A stretch of DNA of 32,159 bases, taken from IMG/VR virus record IMGVR_UViG_3300032225_000350, positions 1-32,159 of that record. One strand, 5' to 3'. Source of the stretch: a virus. Lineage: Duplodnaviria > Caudoviricetes. The translations under genes were made by a program, and so were the position numbers. Every line of letters starts with the position of its first letter. Positions within the stretch are counted from its first letter, which is position 1. This document shows positions 5,403-27,031 of the stretch, piece after piece. The notes below the pieces were generated by a model that worked only from the letters and a program-made list of their open reading frames with translations, did not search any database and was not told the origin of the DNA.

Positions 5403-5804
5403 TCATTTTTTATTGAACTTCATAAAATTTAAGTGTACTTCTTTTAGCATCTCTTTGTATTGTTTTTTATCACCGAATTTAACGTGTTCTTCACTGTAAT
5501 TTTCTGAATTGAGTTTTGCCTTGATTTCAAAAGTTAAATTGTAGGCTTCTTGTATTTTAGCTAAAGTGAGCAGGTTCGCCAGTTTGTCTCCTCTATACAA
5601 TTGTGTTATATAACTTGCTGATGTGTTAATTGCTTTAGCTAAATCTTTTTTCTTGAGAGGTTTTTCTGAATTGAGTTTTTCCAATTCACTTAAAAAACGA
5701 AACATAATCATTTTTGCTTCGTGCTCTAACTCGTCTTCTTTACTTTTTGAAGTAAAAAGACTCTCAAATTCAGGAGCAATGTTATATTTATCTTTAAATT
5801 TCAT
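5403..5804 (-). CDS. XRE/HTH protein (HigA-like antitoxin) fused to the C-terminal tail of the phage HNH protein
   Basis: HTH KKKDLAKAINTSASYITQLYRGDKLANLLTLAKI. The C-terminus HVKFGDKKQYKEMLKEVHLNFM resembles the end of small phage HNH proteins. Confidence 0.75.
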   Translation of the reverse strand: MKFKDKYNIAPEFESLFTSKSKEDELEHEAKMIMFRFLSELEKLNSEKPLKKKDLAKAINTSASYITQLYRGDKLANLLTLAKIQEAYNLTFEIKAKLNSENYSEEHVKFGDKKQYKEMLKEVHLNFMKFNKK

Positions 5805-6974: not shown

Positions 6975-7476
6975 TGTACCATTCATTATAAAATTCTTCA
7001 GCTTTTAAAAGAATTTCGTTTTTAGTTTTATCATTGTCGCTACCATTCCAATAAGCATCTTTGATTTGTTCTTTTTCTATTTCTTTTGCTTTGCTGAATG
7101 CCGTTAAAATCATTTTAGCCCATTCTTCTTTGCTTACTCCCGATTTCGTTGTTAATTCATTATACAACCAATCTACTGCCGTTTGTTTTGTTTCGTTGCT
7201 CATGGTATGCATCGTTCCATTTTGTGTTAAATTATTCATTTGTTCTTTAAATTTTTCCAAGTTTTTAACGTAATCCCAATATCCAATAGCATTTAAATAT
7301 TCTAAATATTCTTCAGGTGTGTTTACATTGTCTGGCAATAATGTTTTGTTTGATAAATTCATTGTTCCTTTAATATCGGGATCTTGAATACCATTAGTAC
7401 TTGAATTGCTTGTTTTTTTAAATCCTTCAAAATCTTGATTATACCATTCAACTGAAGTTTGTTTTTTATCGTTCAT
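6958..7476 (-). CDS. Mosaic hypothetical protein with two KQT(S/A)V(E/D)W modules
   Basis: MNDKKQTSVEW at the N-terminus and an internal MSNETKQTAVDWL...AKEIEKEQIKDAY. Confidence 0.7.
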   Translation of the reverse strand: MNDKKQTSVEWYNQDFEGFKKTSNSSTNGIQDPDIKGTMNLSNKTLLPDNVNTPEEYLEYLNAIGYWDYVKNLEKFKEQMNNLTQNGTMHTMSNETKQTAVDWLYNELTTKSGVSKEEWAKMILTAFSKAKEIEKEQIKDAYWNGSDNDKTKNEILLKAEEFYNEWYNEYNN

Positions 7477-7963
7477 ATTTATTGTTTATTTGTTCTTTGA
7501 TTTCTTTGATTACCCGTAACACTTCACGTAATGAGATTTTTGTTTGCCTATGGATGCTTCGTGCTGAATTTCCATTTGACCATTGGGTGAAGATTTCTCT
7601 TTCATACCATTGGTTTTTGCTTACCACGTTTTCAATTGTGTTTAACTGATTCTCTTTTGTTATTTTGTCTTCTAATGAATCTACTTCTACTAAATCTAAA
7701 CTATGTACATCATACTGCCCAATGGTCGCAAACAGTCTGTTAAATGCTTGTCTTGGGCTTTTTGTTTGGTTGAACATAACTTTGACGCAAAAGTATTTTA
7801 AATATCCGTTTTTGTTTAAATCTATAAGTTTATAATCTGGCATCTCGCATAAAATTAATAGAATATGTTGCTGCAAATCTTCGTGGTGTAAGGGGCAAAT
7901 ATTTTTGGCTGCTTTTTTTAACCAGTCACTTGTGGCAACTTCTATTAAAATTTTATCTTTGAT
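7466..7963 (-). CDS. ECF/sigma-70-like transcription factor, ~165 aa with probable ATC start
   Basis: Region-4-like HTH (SARSIHRQTKISLREVLRVIKEIK) and region-2-like HEDLQQHILL. The frame is open 29 codons upstream of the tracked TTG. Confidence 0.65.
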   Translation of the reverse strand: MKDKILIEVATSDWLKKAAKNICPLHHEDLQQHILLILCEMPDYKLIDLNKNGYLKYFCVKVMFNQTKSPRQAFNRLFATIGQYDVHSLDLVEVDSLEDKITKENQLNTIENVVSKNQWYEREIFTQWSNGNSARSIHRQTKISLREVLRVIKEIKEQINNKYER

Positions 7964-11909: not shown

Positions 11910-12005
11910 AAAAAAAGCCCAACCAAAATAGTGCAGTTCAGGTGCGACTATTTTAATTGAGCCAATATCTTTTAAGTAATCGGAATCCTGAACATTCCAC
12001 TTAAC
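11910..12005 (-). ncRNA. Structured leader RNA / attenuator with complementary loops
   Basis: Two hairpins with loops GUUCAGG and CCUGAAC. The second is followed by U7, and a promoter lies immediately upstream. Confidence 0.7.
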
Positions 12006-12009
12006 AATA

Positions 12010-12041
12010 CAAATATAATCAATTTATTTTTCAAAAACAAA
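12010..12041 (-). promoter_or_regulatory. Early promoter TTTG-N20-TATATTTG
   Basis: Bacteroidetes -33/-7 consensus. Confidence 0.75.
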
Positions 12042-12233: not shown

Positions 12234-12496
12234 TTGTTACCTCCGTATGTTTCGATTTCTTTCTTTACTTCTTGCCAATATTGAAGATATGAAGGTGTCA
12301 TAACATAACATTCTTCATCGATTAGCATATCTGTTTTTATTATTTCATTAACTGCAATTAATGCACACTCTTTTGCTTCAGATAAATTTAACATTGTGCA
12401 TGGAATATCACAAAATGGCATATCACAATTTTTACAATTAAATGAAGCATTTACATATTTATCAATTAATTCGTCTGCTTTTTCTTTCGGTTTCAT
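12230..12496 (-). CDS. Hypothetical protein (KEKADEL...AKECALIAV...YWQEVK), flanked by 25-bp direct repeats
   Basis: 88-aa ORF with ATGA coupling at both ends. Confidence 0.75.
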   Translation of the reverse strand: MKPKEKADELIDKYVNASFNCKNCDMPFCDIPCTMLNLSEAKECALIAVNEIIKTDMLIDEECYVMTPSYLQYWQEVKKEIETYGGNK

Positions 12497-13194: not shown

Positions 13195-13833
13195 TTATAA
13201 AAGTTTGACAATTGACTGCAATAATTCATTCGCATAATATAGCTTTTCGTCTATGATCTCTTTCACATCTTCAAGTTTTATGTGTGCAATAAATAAATTA
13301 TGTGTACTTGGCATTCGTTTATCGTAACTTACAAAGTAACCAAACTCACAAGCACTTGCAATCATACCAAGTTGCATCTGCCAATAGTATTCGGGGTGTA
13401 TTTTTAGCAAATCTTGAGCACATTTGATGCTGCGATTCTTTAAATGTATGCCACTATTAAACGGATTCTTTATTTCAATGATACAATTACTACCAAGTGC
13501 ATCAGGACTATAACCCGAATAATCACCATAAGGAATAAACGTGTACGTTTCACCGCCATAATAAGTATAAAAGTCATCTTGGTTATGTTGGAATACTTCG
13601 AATGCTTCTTTCTCGTTTTCCGTTCCCCACGTCAATGCTTCACCCCAAATTGGCTTTTTAATACCAGTTAGTAGTTCACTTGCTTTGTCATACACAAATG
13701 TTTTTGCAGTTTCCGAAAAGTATTCCGATTTGTTTCTCGGAGCACCCATTAGCTTGTGAATGTCTGATGCAGTAAATCTACCTTCACGGACTTTTAGCCA
13801 TTCGCTTTCGTTGTGTGTGATTGTAATTTCCAT
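13195..13833 (-). CDS. YqaJ/lambda-type exonuclease
   Basis: Motifs WLKVREGRFTAS, WGTENE, SPDA, EIKNP and YYWQMQ. Confidence 0.92.
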   Translation of the reverse strand: MEITITHNESEWLKVREGRFTASDIHKLMGAPRNKSEYFSETAKTFVYDKASELLTGIKKPIWGEALTWGTENEKEAFEVFQHNQDDFYTYYGGETYTFIPYGDYSGYSPDALGSNCIIEIKNPFNSGIHLKNRSIKCAQDLLKIHPEYYWQMQLGMIASACEFGYFVSYDKRMPSTHNLFIAHIKLEDVKEIIDEKLYYANELLQSIVKLL

Positions 13834-14224: not shown

Positions 14225-14758
14225 TCATTTTGCTGCTATCAGCAATTTTTTGTTTTCAGCACTAATCGTATACTTGCGTTCAATATCTTCCATAAGTCCA
14301 CCCGTTTGCAAGTGTTCCTTTGCCTTATTCCAATTGCTATGTTTAGGCGTTAAGTCTTCTTTTGCAACTTGTTTAGATTGTGATACATTACCAGTCGCTG
14401 CATTGCCGTCATCGTCATCGTCTATGTTTAAATTCAATATAGATGAAATTGAATATCTACGTGCATAACTTACCCCACTACCAAGTTGTTGTGGGTTGGT
14501 TGCATCTTTACACAAAATATCGTAAACACTTTCTATTGTTTGACCGGTATCAATGTGAATCAATTTTGTAACAACACAATTATTCATAACTGGTTGTATA
14601 ATCAATAAACCATTCTTTTTAAGAATAGGTGTAATGATACTTAAAATGTGTGGTAATGTCGCATACTTTGAACCTTTGAAAAAAGGATTAGATGCGTCTT
14701 TGCTAATTTTCGGACATTCTGCCTGAAAATTGCTTACTGAATTAAATAGTTCTTTCAT
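14225..14758 (-). CDS. erf: ERF-family ssDNA-annealing recombinase
   Basis: Motifs NPFFKGSKYATL and QQLGSGVSYARRYSI...DDDDGN. Confidence 0.9.
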   Translation of the reverse strand: MKELFNSVSNFQAECPKISKDASNPFFKGSKYATLPHILSIITPILKKNGLLIIQPVMNNCVVTKLIHIDTGQTIESVYDILCKDATNPQQLGSGVSYARRYSISSILNLNIDDDDDGNAATGNVSQSKQVAKEDLTPKHSNWNKAKEHLQTGGLMEDIERKYTISAENKKLLIAAK

Positions 14759-15060
14759 AGTTTATTTTCGGTTATTAATTTGTCAATAGCATTACACAAA
14801 GAATATTGTGCAAAATCGGTCATCAACTCCCAGTTTATATCTGCATATCTTAACCCATCTTCGTCTTGTTCCCAATGCCTAAATTCTTCAATTAAATCTT
14901 CTTCGTTTTCAATGAGTAAACTTTTTACAATTTCTTCATCAAACTCATTATCGTTAACCCCATCAAAAAAATGCAATTTACCTTCAAAAAAATTTGCACT
15001 CATTTTAAGCCGTTGTAAGCGTGTTATAGCATTATCCATAACATTAATTATTGCCTTCAT
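14755..15060 (-). CDS. Acidic hypothetical protein
   Basis: 101-aa ORF overlapping its neighbours. Confidence 0.7.
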   Translation of the reverse strand: MKAIINVMDNAITRLQRLKMSANFFEGKLHFFDGVNDNEFDEEIVKSLLIENEEDLIEEFRHWEQDEDGLRYADINWELMTDFAQYSLCNAIDKLITENKL

Positions 15061-15232
15061 TGATAATGTCGATTGCGGTGTTTAAAATGATTAATACCTT
15101 AGGTTGTATAACATCCCCGTTTAGGTATTTACGAACTGTTGGCATTGATATGCCAGTACGAGCAGCGACTTTAGACACAATGCCGTGCTTCTTGTGTAGT
15201 TTGATTTGTTTTAAAATTTCTTGTATATCCAT
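15044..15232 (-). CDS. Cro-like HTH DNA-binding protein, 62 aa, probably leaderless
   Basis: HTH VSKVAARTGISMPTVRKYLNG; the ATG lies 4 nt after the -7 element. Confidence 0.8.
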   Translation of the reverse strand: MDIQEILKQIKLHKKHGIVSKVAARTGISMPTVRKYLNGDVIQPKVLIILNTAIDIINEGNN

Positions 15233-15236
15233 AGCA

Positions 15237-15267
15237 CAAATATACAAATAGTTTTCAATATAACAAA
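15237..15267 (-). promoter_or_regulatory. Early promoter TTTG-N19-TATATTTG
   Basis: Consensus match at the head of the early operon. Confidence 0.75.
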
Positions 15268-19103: not shown

Positions 19104-20836
19104 ATCTTTTTTCTTACTAATTTACTATTCCAAATGTGTCTGCAATGGTTGATGTGAACCGTTGTTTCCGGTATTGTATACCATCCACCCCTTTCTGTCC
19201 AAATATCCCTACCTACTCTCGCACTAATTGTATCAATTTCACTTCTTAAATACAAACGATTTGCACCTACCATTTGCCTACAAAATTCACGTGATGTTTT
19301 TATGATTTTACGTTCACCACTAAATGCAGGATCTAATGCGTATTCGTATCTAATTTCAATTTGCTGGTCACTTACTTTCTTCAATTCTGACGTACCTAAT
19401 TTTGAAACTGATAGTTTACCTTGAACATCGTCTATAAGTCCGTTAGAAGTCATCTGTGCAATAGTATCGACTACTTTTTTTGTATCTACTTTTAAATACT
19501 TTGCAAGTTCACCCGTTGTTATCCCATCGTTTGCGTTTAGTAGTTGCAAAATTGCAGTTTCAGTTGCAGAAGCAAATTGCATTTTTACTTCTTCAAAGTT
19601 TTCTTTGTCTTCGCCACATTCCATAAACATATTTACAACATCATCTTCGCTATATGCACTTGACATTGCTTGTGGCGTTGCTTCAATAGGTTCAAACCCT
19701 AATTCAATTCTTGCTTCGTTTTGAGTAATTACACCCTTTGTAAATAAGTCAATATAATCTTGCCCGATAGGTGGTTTGTTGATTGTTACAACTTGGCAAG
19801 GTATAGCATATTTTAAAATTGAATTTAAAGCTGAATCAAATTGCTTTTGTCTTGGTTCGATATACGCTTGTTGAAATAACTCGTATGCTTCAATAAGTTC
19901 GTTACGTTGTCCCAAAGCTCCCGCAGTAGAAATACCAAATAAAACGGGGTTTGAAATACGATGACCTACAAATATTTCATCTCTTACTGTGTCATTTAAT
20001 TGTAAAAATTGTTTGTCAAAATCACTTGGTTGCAAGTTGGTTATTTCTGCGGCTCGTTCACTTGGTTCGTTATAACCGATAATCATTCCACCGGCATTGT
20101 GTGTACCCGTCTTTTGAGATTTAAAACGTCTTTCAGTTAATCTCATTTCTTCGGGTGTTGGAATACCTTTGAAAAATTGTATTAACGTTTGTGCTGAAAA
20201 TCCGTTTTTAATTGAATTAAAATGCCAATTTTGAATCTCACTATCTATTTCAATATACCTTAATGCACCAATATATGATGGTAATGGGTATTCTTTTTGA
20301 CCAGCACGATATAACTTGAAGTAAAATACTTGTTTATTTTCACGTGTATTAGAGTTAAAATAAGGATATTCGCATATTTCTGAACGTTGGTTTTGCCAAT
20401 CTTCGCTATAATATGCACAATCTTTGCCTAATCTAACATTTTGAAAAGGTAAATGGTAGTATTCTGCGGGTTTAGTCTTCGCTTTATTCCAAATTACTTC
20501 TACTGCAAACCCATCAAATAACTCAAAGTCTTGTGCTAATTTAGATTTAAGGTTTTCAAAGTCTTCATAAGCATTGATATTTGCCAAAAAATCTTCGGTA
20601 ATTGCTACATCTATTGTGTTTTTACCTTTTATATCAGTATTTGCCCCTACAATATATGCTGCTTTTTGGTTAATAATAGCATTGTGTTTAGGACTACTAT
20701 TATAAAGTCTTATTAATTCTTGTGGATATAGATTATCTAACCCATAAGTGATATAACCCTTTGCTTTATTCTCTTTAAATATCGGTAAACTATCATCTAA
20801 AAATGAAAGTCGGTGTAAGTTAAATTTGTTTTCCAT
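19100..20836 (-). CDS. Portal protein with a C-terminal extension (wHTH plus Cys/His domain)
   Basis: LYNSSPKHNAII, YPLPSY and NSIKNGFS patterns typical of portals of this phage type. Confidence 0.85.
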   Translation of the reverse strand: MENKFNLHRLSFLDDSLPIFKENKAKGYITYGLDNLYPQELIRLYNSSPKHNAIINQKAAYIVGANTDIKGKNTIDVAITEDFLANINAYEDFENLKSKLAQDFELFDGFAVEVIWNKAKTKPAEYYHLPFQNVRLGKDCAYYSEDWQNQRSEICEYPYFNSNTRENKQVFYFKLYRAGQKEYPLPSYIGALRYIEIDSEIQNWHFNSIKNGFSAQTLIQFFKGIPTPEEMRLTERRFKSQKTGTHNAGGMIIGYNEPSERAAEITNLQPSDFDKQFLQLNDTVRDEIFVGHRISNPVLFGISTAGALGQRNELIEAYELFQQAYIEPRQKQFDSALNSILKYAIPCQVVTINKPPIGQDYIDLFTKGVITQNEARIELGFEPIEATPQAMSSAYSEDDVVNMFMECGEDKENFEEVKMQFASATETAILQLLNANDGITTGELAKYLKVDTKKVVDTIAQMTSNGLIDDVQGKLSVSKLGTSELKKVSDQQIEIRYEYALDPAFSGERKIIKTSREFCRQMVGANRLYLRSEIDTISARVGRDIWTERGGWYTIPETTVHINHCRHIWNSKLVRKKI

Positions 20837-23838: not shown

Positions 23839-23866
23839 TAAATTAGCATTTTTACAAATTTGTTAC
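23839..23866 (-). promoter_or_regulatory. Putative late promoter GTAACAAA-N12-CTAATTTA
   Basis: Conserved four-copy motif. Confidence 0.8.
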
Positions 23867-23869
23867 AAT

Positions 23870-23896
23870 AAAAAAAGGGTAGCATTTACGCTACCC
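23870..23896 (-). terminator. Rho-independent terminator after the major tail gene
   Basis: GGGUAGC/GCUACCC stem followed by U7. Confidence 0.85.
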
Positions 23897-23920
23897 CAAT
23901 AAACTATGAAAAAAAACAAC

Positions 23921-24427
23921 TTAAATTCCTAAACTTGTGACTACTGCTCCACTTAATTTATATGGTTGCTCACTATCCATGGCTTGTAAAGTAATTTCGT
24001 AACCATTCAAATCACCAAACGCAGTTCCAGTATTTGCAGTCATTGAAGAAACTTCACATCCACTTTCACGACCTACCAACCAATACTCATCATTATTATT
24101 TTTTACAATGCAAAAAGTTCTACCTTGTGCCAATAATTTTAATTCGTTTCTTTTGGTAGTCGACATTCTACGCAATCTAAATGCTACATCAGTACTATTG
24201 TACACAGTTCCATTCTCAACACTTACATTAGTAGTATTTGTCATAGAACCCGTTGCTTTTGGAATGTCATAAGTGTAAACGTCACCACTTGCGATAGTTG
24301 TAGCAGTCACCTCGCCACTTGCAACTGTGAATCCAGTTTTCGCCCAATTCACCAAGTGAATCGACTTAATACCCCCGACTGCATCTTTGCAGTCAAGGGC
24401 TATACTTTGGGTTAATAAACAAGGCAT
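23921..24427 (-). CDS. Probable major tail (tube) protein
   Basis: CKDAVGGIK and TGTAFGDLNGYEITL patterns; follows the capsid gene. Confidence 0.7.
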   Translation of the reverse strand: MPCLLTQSIALDCKDAVGGIKSIHLVNWAKTGFTVASGEVTATTIASGDVYTYDIPKATGSMTNTTNVSVENGTVYNSTDVAFRLRRMSTTKRNELKLLAQGRTFCIVKNNNDEYWLVGRESGCEVSSMTANTGTAFGDLNGYEITLQAMDSEQPYKLSGAVVTSLGI

Positions 24428-24439
24428 CTATCTATAAAA

Positions 24440-25372
24440 TTAAAGTGTGAAATAAACTACTTGGTCAGGGAATGCAATCTGTGTTCCGTATTTCATTGTC
24501 AAACGGAAACGTACTTCATCAGTATCCATAGAATACCAAATTTTAGCATCTTCTTCTTCATGTGCTAAATCAGTTCCTACAAATAAATTGTCTAAATTAG
24601 TACAAACCATTTTGTTAGTACCGTTCAAACCACCTACACCAATGATTTCTACATTAGTACCCGGCCAAATCATTTTTAATTCACTTGTAGCATCTGCAAC
24701 GTAGTGGTAAAGGTTAGCATTTTTCAAATTAACCAAAGCCAATTTGAAGTTATCTACACCCATAAATAATTTGATATTGTCTTTGTCTGCAATTCTCGCT
24801 GGTACGGCAGCATAGATAGCATCTAAAATAGTACCAATATTAGTAGAAGTAACCGCAGTTACAGAACCAGTATTTCCACTTACAAATGCAGCACTATCAG
24901 TGATAACTTTTAACAACCCATCAAATTTATTGGTGTTAGGGTTAGTATTAGCAGTTGCAGTTGTACCTTGCCACATTGCAATTTCCAATTTCTCAGCAAT
25001 GTTCTTTGATTTTTCCATACCGATTTGTTCTTCAAAAGGAACAGCAGTTGGTGAACCTGGTGCGATTTGTGTTTGCATCCATTTTGCTTCCAAAGTTTTA
25101 GGGCATAAAGTTTCTTCAACTTTAATTTTACCTACTGTGATAACACGTTGTGTGAAGTTAGTTACCCCCGAAGGTGAATATCCACAACCATCAGTTTGGA
25201 AGTAAACATCAGAAGAAAGAATGTTCAAAGCACTTGCAGATTTTACACCTACTTGTACTTGACCAGCATCGTACAATAATTTAGCAGTCTTACCACTAAA
25301 TAATGCTTTTACTAACAAGTCAGTGCTTTGCTCGTTAGTATAGTTAGTTAAACCAGTTACGTTAAATGACAT
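24440..25372 (-). CDS. Major capsid protein
   Basis: 310 aa, after the protease and scaffold; contains FDGLLK. Confidence 0.85.
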   Translation of the reverse strand: MSFNVTGLTNYTNEQSTDLLVKALFSGKTAKLLYDAGQVQVGVKSASALNILSSDVYFQTDGCGYSPSGVTNFTQRVITVGKIKVEETLCPKTLEAKWMQTQIAPGSPTAVPFEEQIGMEKSKNIAEKLEIAMWQGTTATANTNPNTNKFDGLLKVITDSAAFVSGNTGSVTAVTSTNIGTILDAIYAAVPARIADKDNIKLFMGVDNFKLALVNLKNANLYHYVADATSELKMIWPGTNVEIIGVGGLNGTNKMVCTNLDNLFVGTDLAHEEEDAKIWYSMDTDEVRFRLTMKYGTQIAFPDQVVYFTL

Positions 25373-25376
25373 ATTT

Positions 25377-25940
25377 TTATTTTTTTAGTTGTTGTGCAAA
25401 TTTTTTGATGTTTTCGAATTGTTGGTCTTTTTTAGACAATTTAGTTTGGTCTACATTCATTGGTGCTTCACTCGGTAAATTAGCAACTCTTTCTACCAAA
25501 TCAACAGTCTTTGAAAACGCTTCACTTTGGTTTTCAAGTTGTGAAACTACTCTATTCAATGCTTCGGTTAAAGTTGAAATTTTGCATTCTAAACTTGCAA
25601 CTACTTTGTCAAATTTTTCAACGGTTGCAAATTCCTTTGCCATTTCGGTTGCAGGTTGCATACCAGGTGTTTCAATTTCAGCTGGTTCTACAATCTCGGT
25701 TACTATACCGTTAACAGTAGTAACTAATGCACCGCCTTCAACTTCGTGTGTTGCATCAGGTGCTGGAATATCTCCATCGGCAGTTTCTACTAAAATAGCA
25801 GTACCAACTGAAAGTGTACCATCCCATTTGATTACTGTGCCATCGGTCAAAACGGCAGTTTCCATTTTAACTGGTTCGTTATTGAAATTGAATTTAGACA
25901 TCAACTCTCTAACTTCTTTGATTAAATCTTTTGTATTCAT
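25377..25940 (-). CDS. Putative scaffolding protein
   Basis: Acidic, with a coiled-coil C-terminus, between the protease and capsid genes. Confidence 0.65.
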   Translation of the reverse strand: MNTKDLIKEVRELMSKFNFNNEPVKMETAVLTDGTVIKWDGTLSVGTAILVETADGDIPAPDATHEVEGGALVTTVNGIVTEIVEPAEIETPGMQPATEMAKEFATVEKFDKVVASLECKISTLTEALNRVVSQLENQSEAFSKTVDLVERVANLPSEAPMNVDQTKLSKKDQQFENIKKFAQQLKK

Positions 25941-25947
25941 TTTTATA

Positions 25948-25975
25948 TAAATTAGTTTTATGTGTTTTTTGTTGC
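25948..25975 (-). promoter_or_regulatory. Putative late promoter GCAACAAA-N12-CTAATTTA
   Basis: Conserved four-copy motif. Confidence 0.8.
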
Positions 25976-27031
25976 ATTTTTTATATGCCTTTGTAAAATC
26001 TCTTTCAATTGTGAAAGAAATTGTATCTCTGCATTGACCGGGAAATTGAAAAATCCCTCAACACTAAAGCCATTCCACGTTCCATCTTTGCATTTTACCC
26101 ATACTGTATCTGCTTCTACCAAATAACTCACAAACCAAGAACCGTCTTTTGCATCTTCAAATCCTTTAGGTGGCATAATTCCACGTTCAAAGTCTAACAA
26201 ATAGCTTTCAAATAATGTGCATCCCTCAATTGGTTGTTTATGATCTGTGTTAACAGCGTTGTATTTGTTGTTTAAAGCCCACTTTTTAGCAATTTTAAAA
26301 ATAGTTTCTTTGTCAAAGACTACATAGTACTCACCTTTTTCTTCATCACGTCTGTAAATAGGCAAATCAGCATACATAGCAGCACCGGTAATGATGCGTT
26401 TTTCTTCGTTTTGAATGGCAAACTTTGTTTTTGGTTTCTTAATTTGCTTAATGTAGTTGGGTAAATCTTTTACAATGATGTCAAATTTTGCACCTACACT
26501 TCCAATTGCATCTATTACGTCTTGATTATTGTCGTAATGTTTGGTAATTCCAAGTTCTTTTATTTTCTCAACTTTTGCAGCATTTGAACCAGTTGCATAT
26601 ACACGACTTTCAGCAATTCCTAAATCATTTGCAACGCTTAACATCCCCTCTACGTTATGACGTGCGGAAATAATGTAAACAGTACTACCATTTTCTATTT
26701 CTTGTTTTGCAAGTTCTTTGCCGTGTGAAGTTGATAAGGTATCATCATAATCAAAACTTACTTTGTCACCTTGAGCAAAGTTTTTGTTATCCCACATTGA
26801 ATTGCAAATTGCAACTGCTTGTTCACTATCCTTACCTTCGTCAATTACGTACTTTATGCACTTGGGTAAAAACTCATCTTTTGTTTCACCTTGTGTTGGT
26901 TGTAAAAATTCTATTTTGTTAAATGCTAAAAAGTTCTTTTGTATTGCTGGATTTTCAACAAGTGAAATAAAGTCGATTCCACTTTCAAAGTCAAATTCGT
27001 CTATTGATAATTTGTAAATAGGTAAATCCAT
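25958..27031 (-). CDS. Prohead serine protease (XkdF/S78_2-like) with an inserted HAD-like domain
   Basis: ISLVENPAI N-terminus; EKRIITG, NTDH, GSW and GFSVEG motifs; internal SFDYDDTL. Confidence 0.8.
   Translation of the reverse strand: MDLPIYKLSIDEFDFESGIDFISLVENPAIQKNFLAFNKIEFLQPTQGETKDEFLPKCIKYVIDEGKDSEQAVAICNSMWDNKNFAQGDKVSFDYDDTLSTSHGKELAKQEIENGSTVYIISARHNVEGMLSVANDLGIAESRVYATGSNAAKVEKIKELGITKHYDNNQDVIDAIGSVGAKFDIIVKDLPNYIKQIKKPKTKFAIQNEEKRIITGAAMYADLPIYRRDEEKGEYYVVFDKETIFKIAKKWALNNKYNAVNTDHKQPIEGCTLFESYLLDFERGIMPPKGFEDAKDGSWFVSYLVEADTVWVKCKDGTWNGFSVEGFFNFPVNAEIQFLSQLKEILQRHIKNATKNT

Follow-up and report, generated by a model that had tools for sequence, protein, structure and literature searches.

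Complementarity between the 3' UTR of a late structural mRNA and the erf start codon in a group of phages: a predicted antisense regulator

Described antisense RNAs and the phage locus

Phages are known to direct trans-acting antisense RNAs at their own early mRNA, as in the case of the c4 RNA of P1/P7 and the CI RNA of P4, both of which are structured immunity RNAs. The closest described systems, however, are the FopS (RF04319) and GibS RNAs of Bacteroides thetaiotaomicron, in which, according to the accessible portions of the two reports, a single-stranded U-rich seed complementary to the start codon is followed by an intrinsic terminator, and start codons are paired in a lineage without Shine-Dalgarno sequences (PMC11697453, PMC7366714). 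FopS-10 blocks initiation on susC by pairing in vitro, the FopS-14 paralog is derived from a 3' UTR, and one FopS copy has been reported in a phage (available text of PMC11697453). Small RNAs derived from 3' UTRs act in trans on targets at other loci through short, imperfect pairing, and one of them, CisR of Vibrio cholerae, pairs with and lowers a phage mRNA, cep of CTXphi (PMC13250501, as far as its open text goes).

The window that we analyzed is a complete virus genome of 32,159 bases with direct terminal repeats, in which the minus strand, marked (−) below, carries nearly all long open reading frames. Terminase, portal, helicase, helicase loader, exonuclease, ERF and tape measure genes were recognized by Pfam and PHROG matches, and a scan of 33 proteins revealed no integrase. 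An XRE-type (HTH_3) gene of 133 aa at 5403–5804 (−) sits among the late-early genes and resembles an inserted regulator. The longest inverted exact repeat of the genome has 21 nt (12425–12445 and 19992–20012), and both of its copies lie within coding regions.

The phages of this group are aquatic and probably infect Bacteroidota. This host was inferred from A-rich starts without Shine-Dalgarno sequences, from TAnnTTTG boxes before early genes, which we take to be the Bacteroidota −7 promoter consensus, and from a cultured, distant relative, Nonlabens phage P12024S, whose tail protein is 27% identical. A-rich starts of this kind have been described for Bacteroidetes (PMC7366714, in the part accessible). 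The sole match in a search of genome collections was one contig in an assembly titled Gammaproteobacteria, which we take for a stray phage contig and which gives the Bacteroidota host no support; this 45-kb contig (L376/L377) holds two inverted copies of a tail gene of one of the clades described below (clade D) and is probably chimeric.

The 3' UTR of the major tail gene in this genome shares with FopS and GibS the arrangement of seed and terminator and the pairing with a start codon, both predicted here. The FopS model has its best match in the genome at the UTR element (23867–23917 (−), 17.7 bits, E 0.05). However, none of five genomes exceeded the gathering threshold of 56 bits (best 24.4), and no FopS was reported in a genome-wide Rfam scan, in which the single match was weak and unrelated. 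Because the model picks out this element and yet scores it far below the cut-off, we suggest that the UTR works like FopS and GibS without being a member of the family. The FopS seed (R1/R1') is conserved, whereas the UTR shares about 10 nt with the FopS consensus, at the latter's 5' end, in this genome and relatives keep the anti-AUG core only. FopS is present in 12–15 copies per genome and targets host susC genes; the UTR element occurs once per genome, with a second unit in clades A and B, and its predicted target is a phage recombinase. Unlike FopS, the UTR seed drifts with a single phage target and is located at the end of an mRNA for virion proteins. CisR, in turn, is host-encoded and Hfq-assisted (PMC13250501, open text), whereas the proposal here is that a phage's own late mRNA acts on its own early gene. 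The UTR shares with the 3' UTR-derived RNAs a target at another locus and short, imperfect predicted pairing, and it differs from the structured, immunity-linked c4 and CI RNAs in that its seed lacks structure and is linked to late transcription; the genome gave no Rfam match to c4 or CI at E ≤ 5. No phage late-UTR RNA acting on a recombinase gene erf was found in the literature covered, which took in only a minority of subscription papers.

The late 3' UTR and its pairing with the erf start

The element lies at the end of a predicted scaffold-capsid-tail transcript of about 2.07 kb. Its first gene is a probable scaffold gene by position (187 aa, 25377–25940 (−)), followed by a probable major capsid gene (310 aa, 24440–25372 (−); weak PHROG match to "virion structural protein", capsid by position and size) and by a probable tail-tube (major tail) gene (168 aa, 23921–24427 (−); phrog_19091), whose stop codon opens the seed. 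The structure model of the 168-aa protein (pLDDT 75) gave weak Foldseek top matches that were mostly tail tubes, the best being lambda gpV (E 1.6e-3), with nothing at E ≤ 0.001; the tail-tube assignment suggested by this model is probable. A bipartite motif occurs just before four late genes (at about 27063, 25973, 23864 and 874 (−)), and on sequence grounds its copies are probable phage late promoters. The extent of the transcript is predicted from this motif, since copies of it lie at 25949–25975 (−), before the scaffold gene, and at 23840–23866 (−), before the gene directly past the terminator; with a promoter at the latter position, downstream genes would not need read-through. A 136-aa open reading frame (7466–7876), considered for the sigma factor that would act at this motif, has no Pfam or PHROG match. 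We rejected Sigma-70 promoters as the wrong type, with scan counts near the shuffle mean. The TAnnTTTG box alone is also at chance level (69 versus 62), so that calls of early promoters are based on position.

Contigs from RNA libraries of approximately 90%-identical relatives, obtained in two studies, correspond to 23905–25951, 23922–25932, 23949–26204 and 24034–25931, and the second of these carries 19 further loose letters, in which the UTR seed of that relative can be read. These are assembled contigs that may include DNA and show neither ends nor strand; their depth cannot rank genes, and the runs were picked by the late region. The contigs that reach the seed are a weak hint that it is transcribed.

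Between the tail-gene stop codon (at 23921) and the predicted terminator, the UTR spans about 25 bases. Folding and match searches point to a single-stranded seed centered on an anti-AUG (23898–23920 (−)), followed by a predicted intrinsic terminator at the end of the late transcript (23870–23897 (−)), whose hairpin (23897–23876) has 9 pairs and a U tail (fold z = −3.6). By inspection, the letters of this hairpin vary among clades and the stem is preserved.

The gene erf (14225–14758 (−)) encodes an ERF-family single-strand annealing recombinase (PF04404, E 9e-21) and is the third gene of a predicted early operon, after an HTH gene and a 100-aa gene, with a predicted −7 box at 15237–15244 (−). 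The gene for a YqaJ exonuclease, a likely partner of ERF by its Pfam match and gene order, comes after erf (13195–13833 (−)); in clades E and F it extends over the stop codon of erf. The HTH gene is Cro-like (15044–15244 (−)); with its start 5–10 nt past the promoter box in most clades, it probably gives a leaderless mRNA. Elsewhere in the genome, a leader RNA (11911–12005 (−), promoter box 12010–12017) lies before T5orf172-domain and replication genes, and its first hairpin loop (11987–11993) is complementary to a terminator-like hairpin loop region (11936–11942). The leader RNA has no Rfam match; as a raw count, a loop complement of 6–9 nt was found in 27 of 30 candidate rows from 29 genomes (about 14 different sequences).

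The initial annotation had described plus-strand 23898–23911 as the exact reverse complement of 14753–14766, and we confirmed this perfect match of 14 nt. The tail gene and erf are both minus-strand genes, and RNA of the UTR is therefore antisense to positions −8 to +6 of erf. One G-U pair and two further pairs bring the match to 17 nt, also as first described, and RNAduplex lengthens the duplex to 23 pairs (−18.5 kcal/mol). The predicted target, as delimited by start ranking, RNAduplex, window scan and opening cost, is the region from −9 to +16 of erf (14743–14767 (−)), 9.1 kb from the UTR. None of 1250 coding-strand windows of this genome exceeds the erf start in its pairing with the UTR. 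Opening the erf start region costs 0.7 kcal/mol, and opening the seed inside the full mRNA costs 3–14 kcal/mol; the pairing energies used here reflect hybridization only. The perfect 14 nt are special to this genome, since three close relatives have a 2-nt bulge at that place, and the duplexes outside clade H are bulged, with 11–23 pairs.

How far this match exceeds chance depends on the comparison. Base composition predicts 0.004 copies on the coding strand, and the genome holds 8 inverted exact matches of at least 14 nt. When start-like seeds were drawn from a profile of this phage's starts, an in-register match of at least 14 nt to any of the 57 starts arose in 1.7% of 20,000 draws, and in 10% when the 7-nt core around the AUG was fixed. 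When the flanks were shuffled, in this genome only, erf came first in 18 of 300 cases and −18.5 kcal/mol was reached with some start in 59 of 300. Thus, the 14-mer is rare by composition and only modestly beyond chance when set against start-like seeds; because start regions resemble each other, the match in a single genome is weak on its own.

Covariation in relatives and a second element

To place the UTR in its group, we surveyed 260 loci with a complete UTR, which represent 83 distinct types. The anti-AUG pattern is present in 76 of these types, and by inspection five of the other seven carry TCAT followed by another base. The core shifts in position relative to the stop codon and the terminator, and its flanks are clade-dependent. 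Pairing was ranked in 32 genomes, this one and 31 further ones from IMG/VR, in which both erf and the tail gene are present, with each called ATG start, 34–77 per genome, ordered by RNAduplex energy; G010 was left out with its erf start cut off, and 13 metagenome loci lie outside this whole-record set. UTR type and identity served to delimit nine clades by hand, which broadly agree with both protein trees. Clades A–D had been viewed by eye before the test, and clades E–I were fresh.

The covariation with early gene starts that had been suggested as a check pointed to erf as the favored target. erf was the best-pairing start in 21 of the 32 genomes and was among the top three in 24. By clade, it came first in 2 of 5 genomes of A, 0 of 3 of B (ranks 2, 9 and 13), 5 of 5 of C, 8 of 8 of D, 1 of 1 of E, 3 of 3 of F, 0 of 3 of H and 2 of 3 of I (the other at rank 2), with rank 2 in G; the count is dominated by clades C and D (13 genomes, all at rank 1). 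The fit fails (rank above 3) in eight genomes, namely three of clade A and two of clade B at ranks 9–13 and those of clade H at ranks 17, 17 and 33. With UTRs from other clades, erf was first in only 61 of 872 pairings, with a median rank of 20. The clade-by-clade diagonal was matched by 2 of 100,000 permutations, a figure that overstates the significance because the clades are related. Ten further pair types, mostly from the same clades, placed erf first in 6 and in the top three in 9, with 0.28 expected.

The clade-matched changes are specific to erf. Among 30 gene families (those in at least 8 of the 9 clades, with up to three genomes per clade), the own-clade pairing excess was −4.8 kcal/mol for erf (p 0.0001) and −1.6 kcal/mol for the HTH gene, and the rest were above −0.9 kcal/mol. 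A mere composition effect is ruled out, since erf tops this excess. Failure of pairing across clades, together with the erf-specific excess, also led us to reject a seed that is a generic anti-start motif only. At the level of single positions, the 22 own pairs show a match at −3 in 64% of cases (18% across clades) and at +6 in 82% (48% across clades). The three bases before the erf AUG and their mirror in the UTR read ACT/ACT here, CCT/CCT in clade C, TCT/TCT in D, GAT/GAT in E and ACT/ACT in I. Within clade D, 3 of 4 records with the UTR variant for erf codons TCA GAA also have those codons in erf, and 6 of 6 with the other UTR variant have AGC GAA; one contig (L381) departs from this fine match. 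Genome G032 falls within the C/D group in both protein trees, yet its erf leader and UTR are both switched. In 7 of 8 genomes of clades A and B, the erf G at +7 stands opposite a U, a G-U pair that RNA alone tolerates. At the scale of whole genomes, 23–711 windows out-pair the erf site in 9 of 22 genomes.

Three observations on other starts and clades may be added. After erf, the start that covaries best with the UTR is that of the Cro-like HTH gene (p 0.009). In P12024S (L155; 2692–2750, 16313) the tail-gene UTR also has a U-rich arm before a terminator; its best start among 60 is gp24 (−12.4 kcal/mol), and erf ranks 8. In clade H (G043, G044, G048) the UTR retains the anti-AUG and fits neither erf nor a consistent phage start, and a host target or a lost target is a candidate explanation.

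A second element (1057–1118 (−)) is predicted from folding and start ranking to be a stand-alone small RNA of approximately 60 nt with a U-rich anti-start seed, which also fits the erf start. It consists of a promoter box (predicted −7 box at 1122–1129 (−), by the position of TAnnTTTG), a 23-nt U-rich arm and a terminator hairpin with a U tail. Among six genomes, this element ranks erf first in four (G000, among 57 starts, G005, G006 and G009), fourth in G003 and eighth in G001; G002 is without it, and the UTR duplex there has 22 pairs. A narrow pattern detected the element in 12 of 13 intergenic types of clades A and B and in 1 of 41 others, with none in three clade H genomes; a scan of the collection for the pattern of the second element was too loose (about 5000 matches). 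Ten of the 12 second-element types contain the complement of erf codons 2–4 in the A/B spelling. The RNA contigs leave the element uncovered, a gap that proves nothing. As judged by predicted pairing, both elements in clades A and B would converge on one erf site, and in clade B the small RNA would fit where the UTR fails. The initial annotation had regarded the UTR and 1060–1117 as sharing one architecture and forming one regulatory system. The ranking of erf first by the second element agrees with this, but its anatomy differs, it has its own predicted host-type promoter and it is found in clades A and B only. A perfect GC-rich hairpin (1008–1030) lies directly downstream of its terminator, and in clade B (L244/L245, which is G006; L019, L020, L030) a tandem promoter-terminator unit that does not carry an anti-AUG lies upstream of the anti-erf small RNA.

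Alternative explanations and a proposed role

The complementarity, the conservation around the anti-AUG and the erf-specific, clade-matched changes are observed. That they reflect a real, selected RNA-RNA complementarity between the late UTR and the erf start is likely, in our judgment. The further step, that the late-mRNA 3' end acts in trans as an antisense RNA repressing erf, is the reading that we favor from these patterns, with somewhat less assurance. The original suggestion that a late transcript acts on early genes thus gains a favored target through covariation and is restricted by the eight of 32 genomes in which the UTR misfits erf.

The alternative that survives best, although we consider it unlikely, is a broad, FopS-like seed directed at many A-rich AUG-AAA starts, chiefly those of host mRNAs (e.g. 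outer-membrane receptors) or of superinfecting phages, with erf as one among them. It is in line with the retention of the anti-AUG core where erf misfits (clade H, some of A and B), with the first rank of early starts other than erf for the UTR in G005, G006 and G009, with the best match of the FopS model falling on the UTR element and with the resemblance of the core to the FopS consensus at the latter's 5' end (PMC11697453, accessible part). However, a seed of this kind would not track the unusual C or U at −3 of erf in clades C and D, nor would it fail on the erf of other clades. Because pairing is symmetric, the direction might also be reversed: the erf mRNA, made early, would bind the 3' end of the late mRNA and govern the stability or termination of that message (e.g. 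through a double-strand RNase), which would keep leaky late transcripts low early in infection. The duplex in G000, G002 and G013 does span the whole interval between the tail stop codon and the base of the terminator, but most genomes have the erf AUG at its center, and the second RNA, a stand-alone transcript without a coding sequence, fits that erf site too; this reading appears decidedly improbable.

Two further alternatives have very little probability. The UTR could contain an RbpB-like protein-binding or stability motif of the mRNA 3' end, with the erf match incidental; RbpB recognizes the FopS motif as well as single strands rich in A and U (PMC11697453, in its accessible text), and the single-genome match is about a 1-in-10 event, but the letters flanking the core vary by clade and follow erf. 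A relic at the DNA level is just as improbable, whether as a copy of the erf start inverted through template switching or recombination or as the beginning of a very short plus-strand open reading frame. On the plus strand, a good start is indeed followed by 8 codons here, and expressed strands out-pair opposite strands in just 20 of 30 pairs, but the matches are bulged, include G-U pairs and are renewed in several clades, and single-base changes in U-run length among close relatives shift the plus-strand frame.

In the antisense reading that we favor, the full late mRNA or a processed 3' piece would pair with the erf start in the cell, and pairing over −9 to +16 would hide the AUG and the A-rich enhancer positions and so block initiation, after the model of FopS-10 on susC. 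The recombination pair would then fall together, because the YqaJ exonuclease gene follows erf and overlaps its stop codon in clades E and F, and the shut-off would be late, because the UTR exists only once late promoters fire. In clades A and B, the promoter-driven small RNA, presumably expressed early, may add to or replace control by the UTR and dose erf from the start. ERF-type proteins serve in circularization and, by analogy with Sak, in concatemer formation (PMC5499656, from the text accessible). ERF would be needed early for these steps and lowered when packaging starts. ERF-like proteins can also have toxic effects on the host, and escape from several defence systems involves mutations in them; ERF-type proteins have been implicated in escape from AbiA/AbiJ and an Erf-like protein in escape from RAZR (PMC12184496, PMC13017515). 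Less ERF would also limit toxicity and detection by host defences, and tight dosing has a plausible pay-off. A bolder version, which we hold to be rather doubtful, is that neither processing nor a chaperone is needed: the structural mRNA, while intact, would silence the ERF-exonuclease module and also block circularization of superinfecting kin with an erf start that it matches, in which case the fast joint drift of seed and erf start would serve as an exclusion code specific to each lineage.

In small lytic phages, the shut-down of early genes at the onset of late transcription is usually credited to proteins. In the present phages, selection appears to have shaped a 25-nt end of a virion-protein message so that it covers the start codon of a single early gene, and natural compensatory variants exist in several lineages. 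The anti-start-codon logic of FopS and GibS would thus extend from gut Bacteroides to aquatic phages, with a target in the phage itself.
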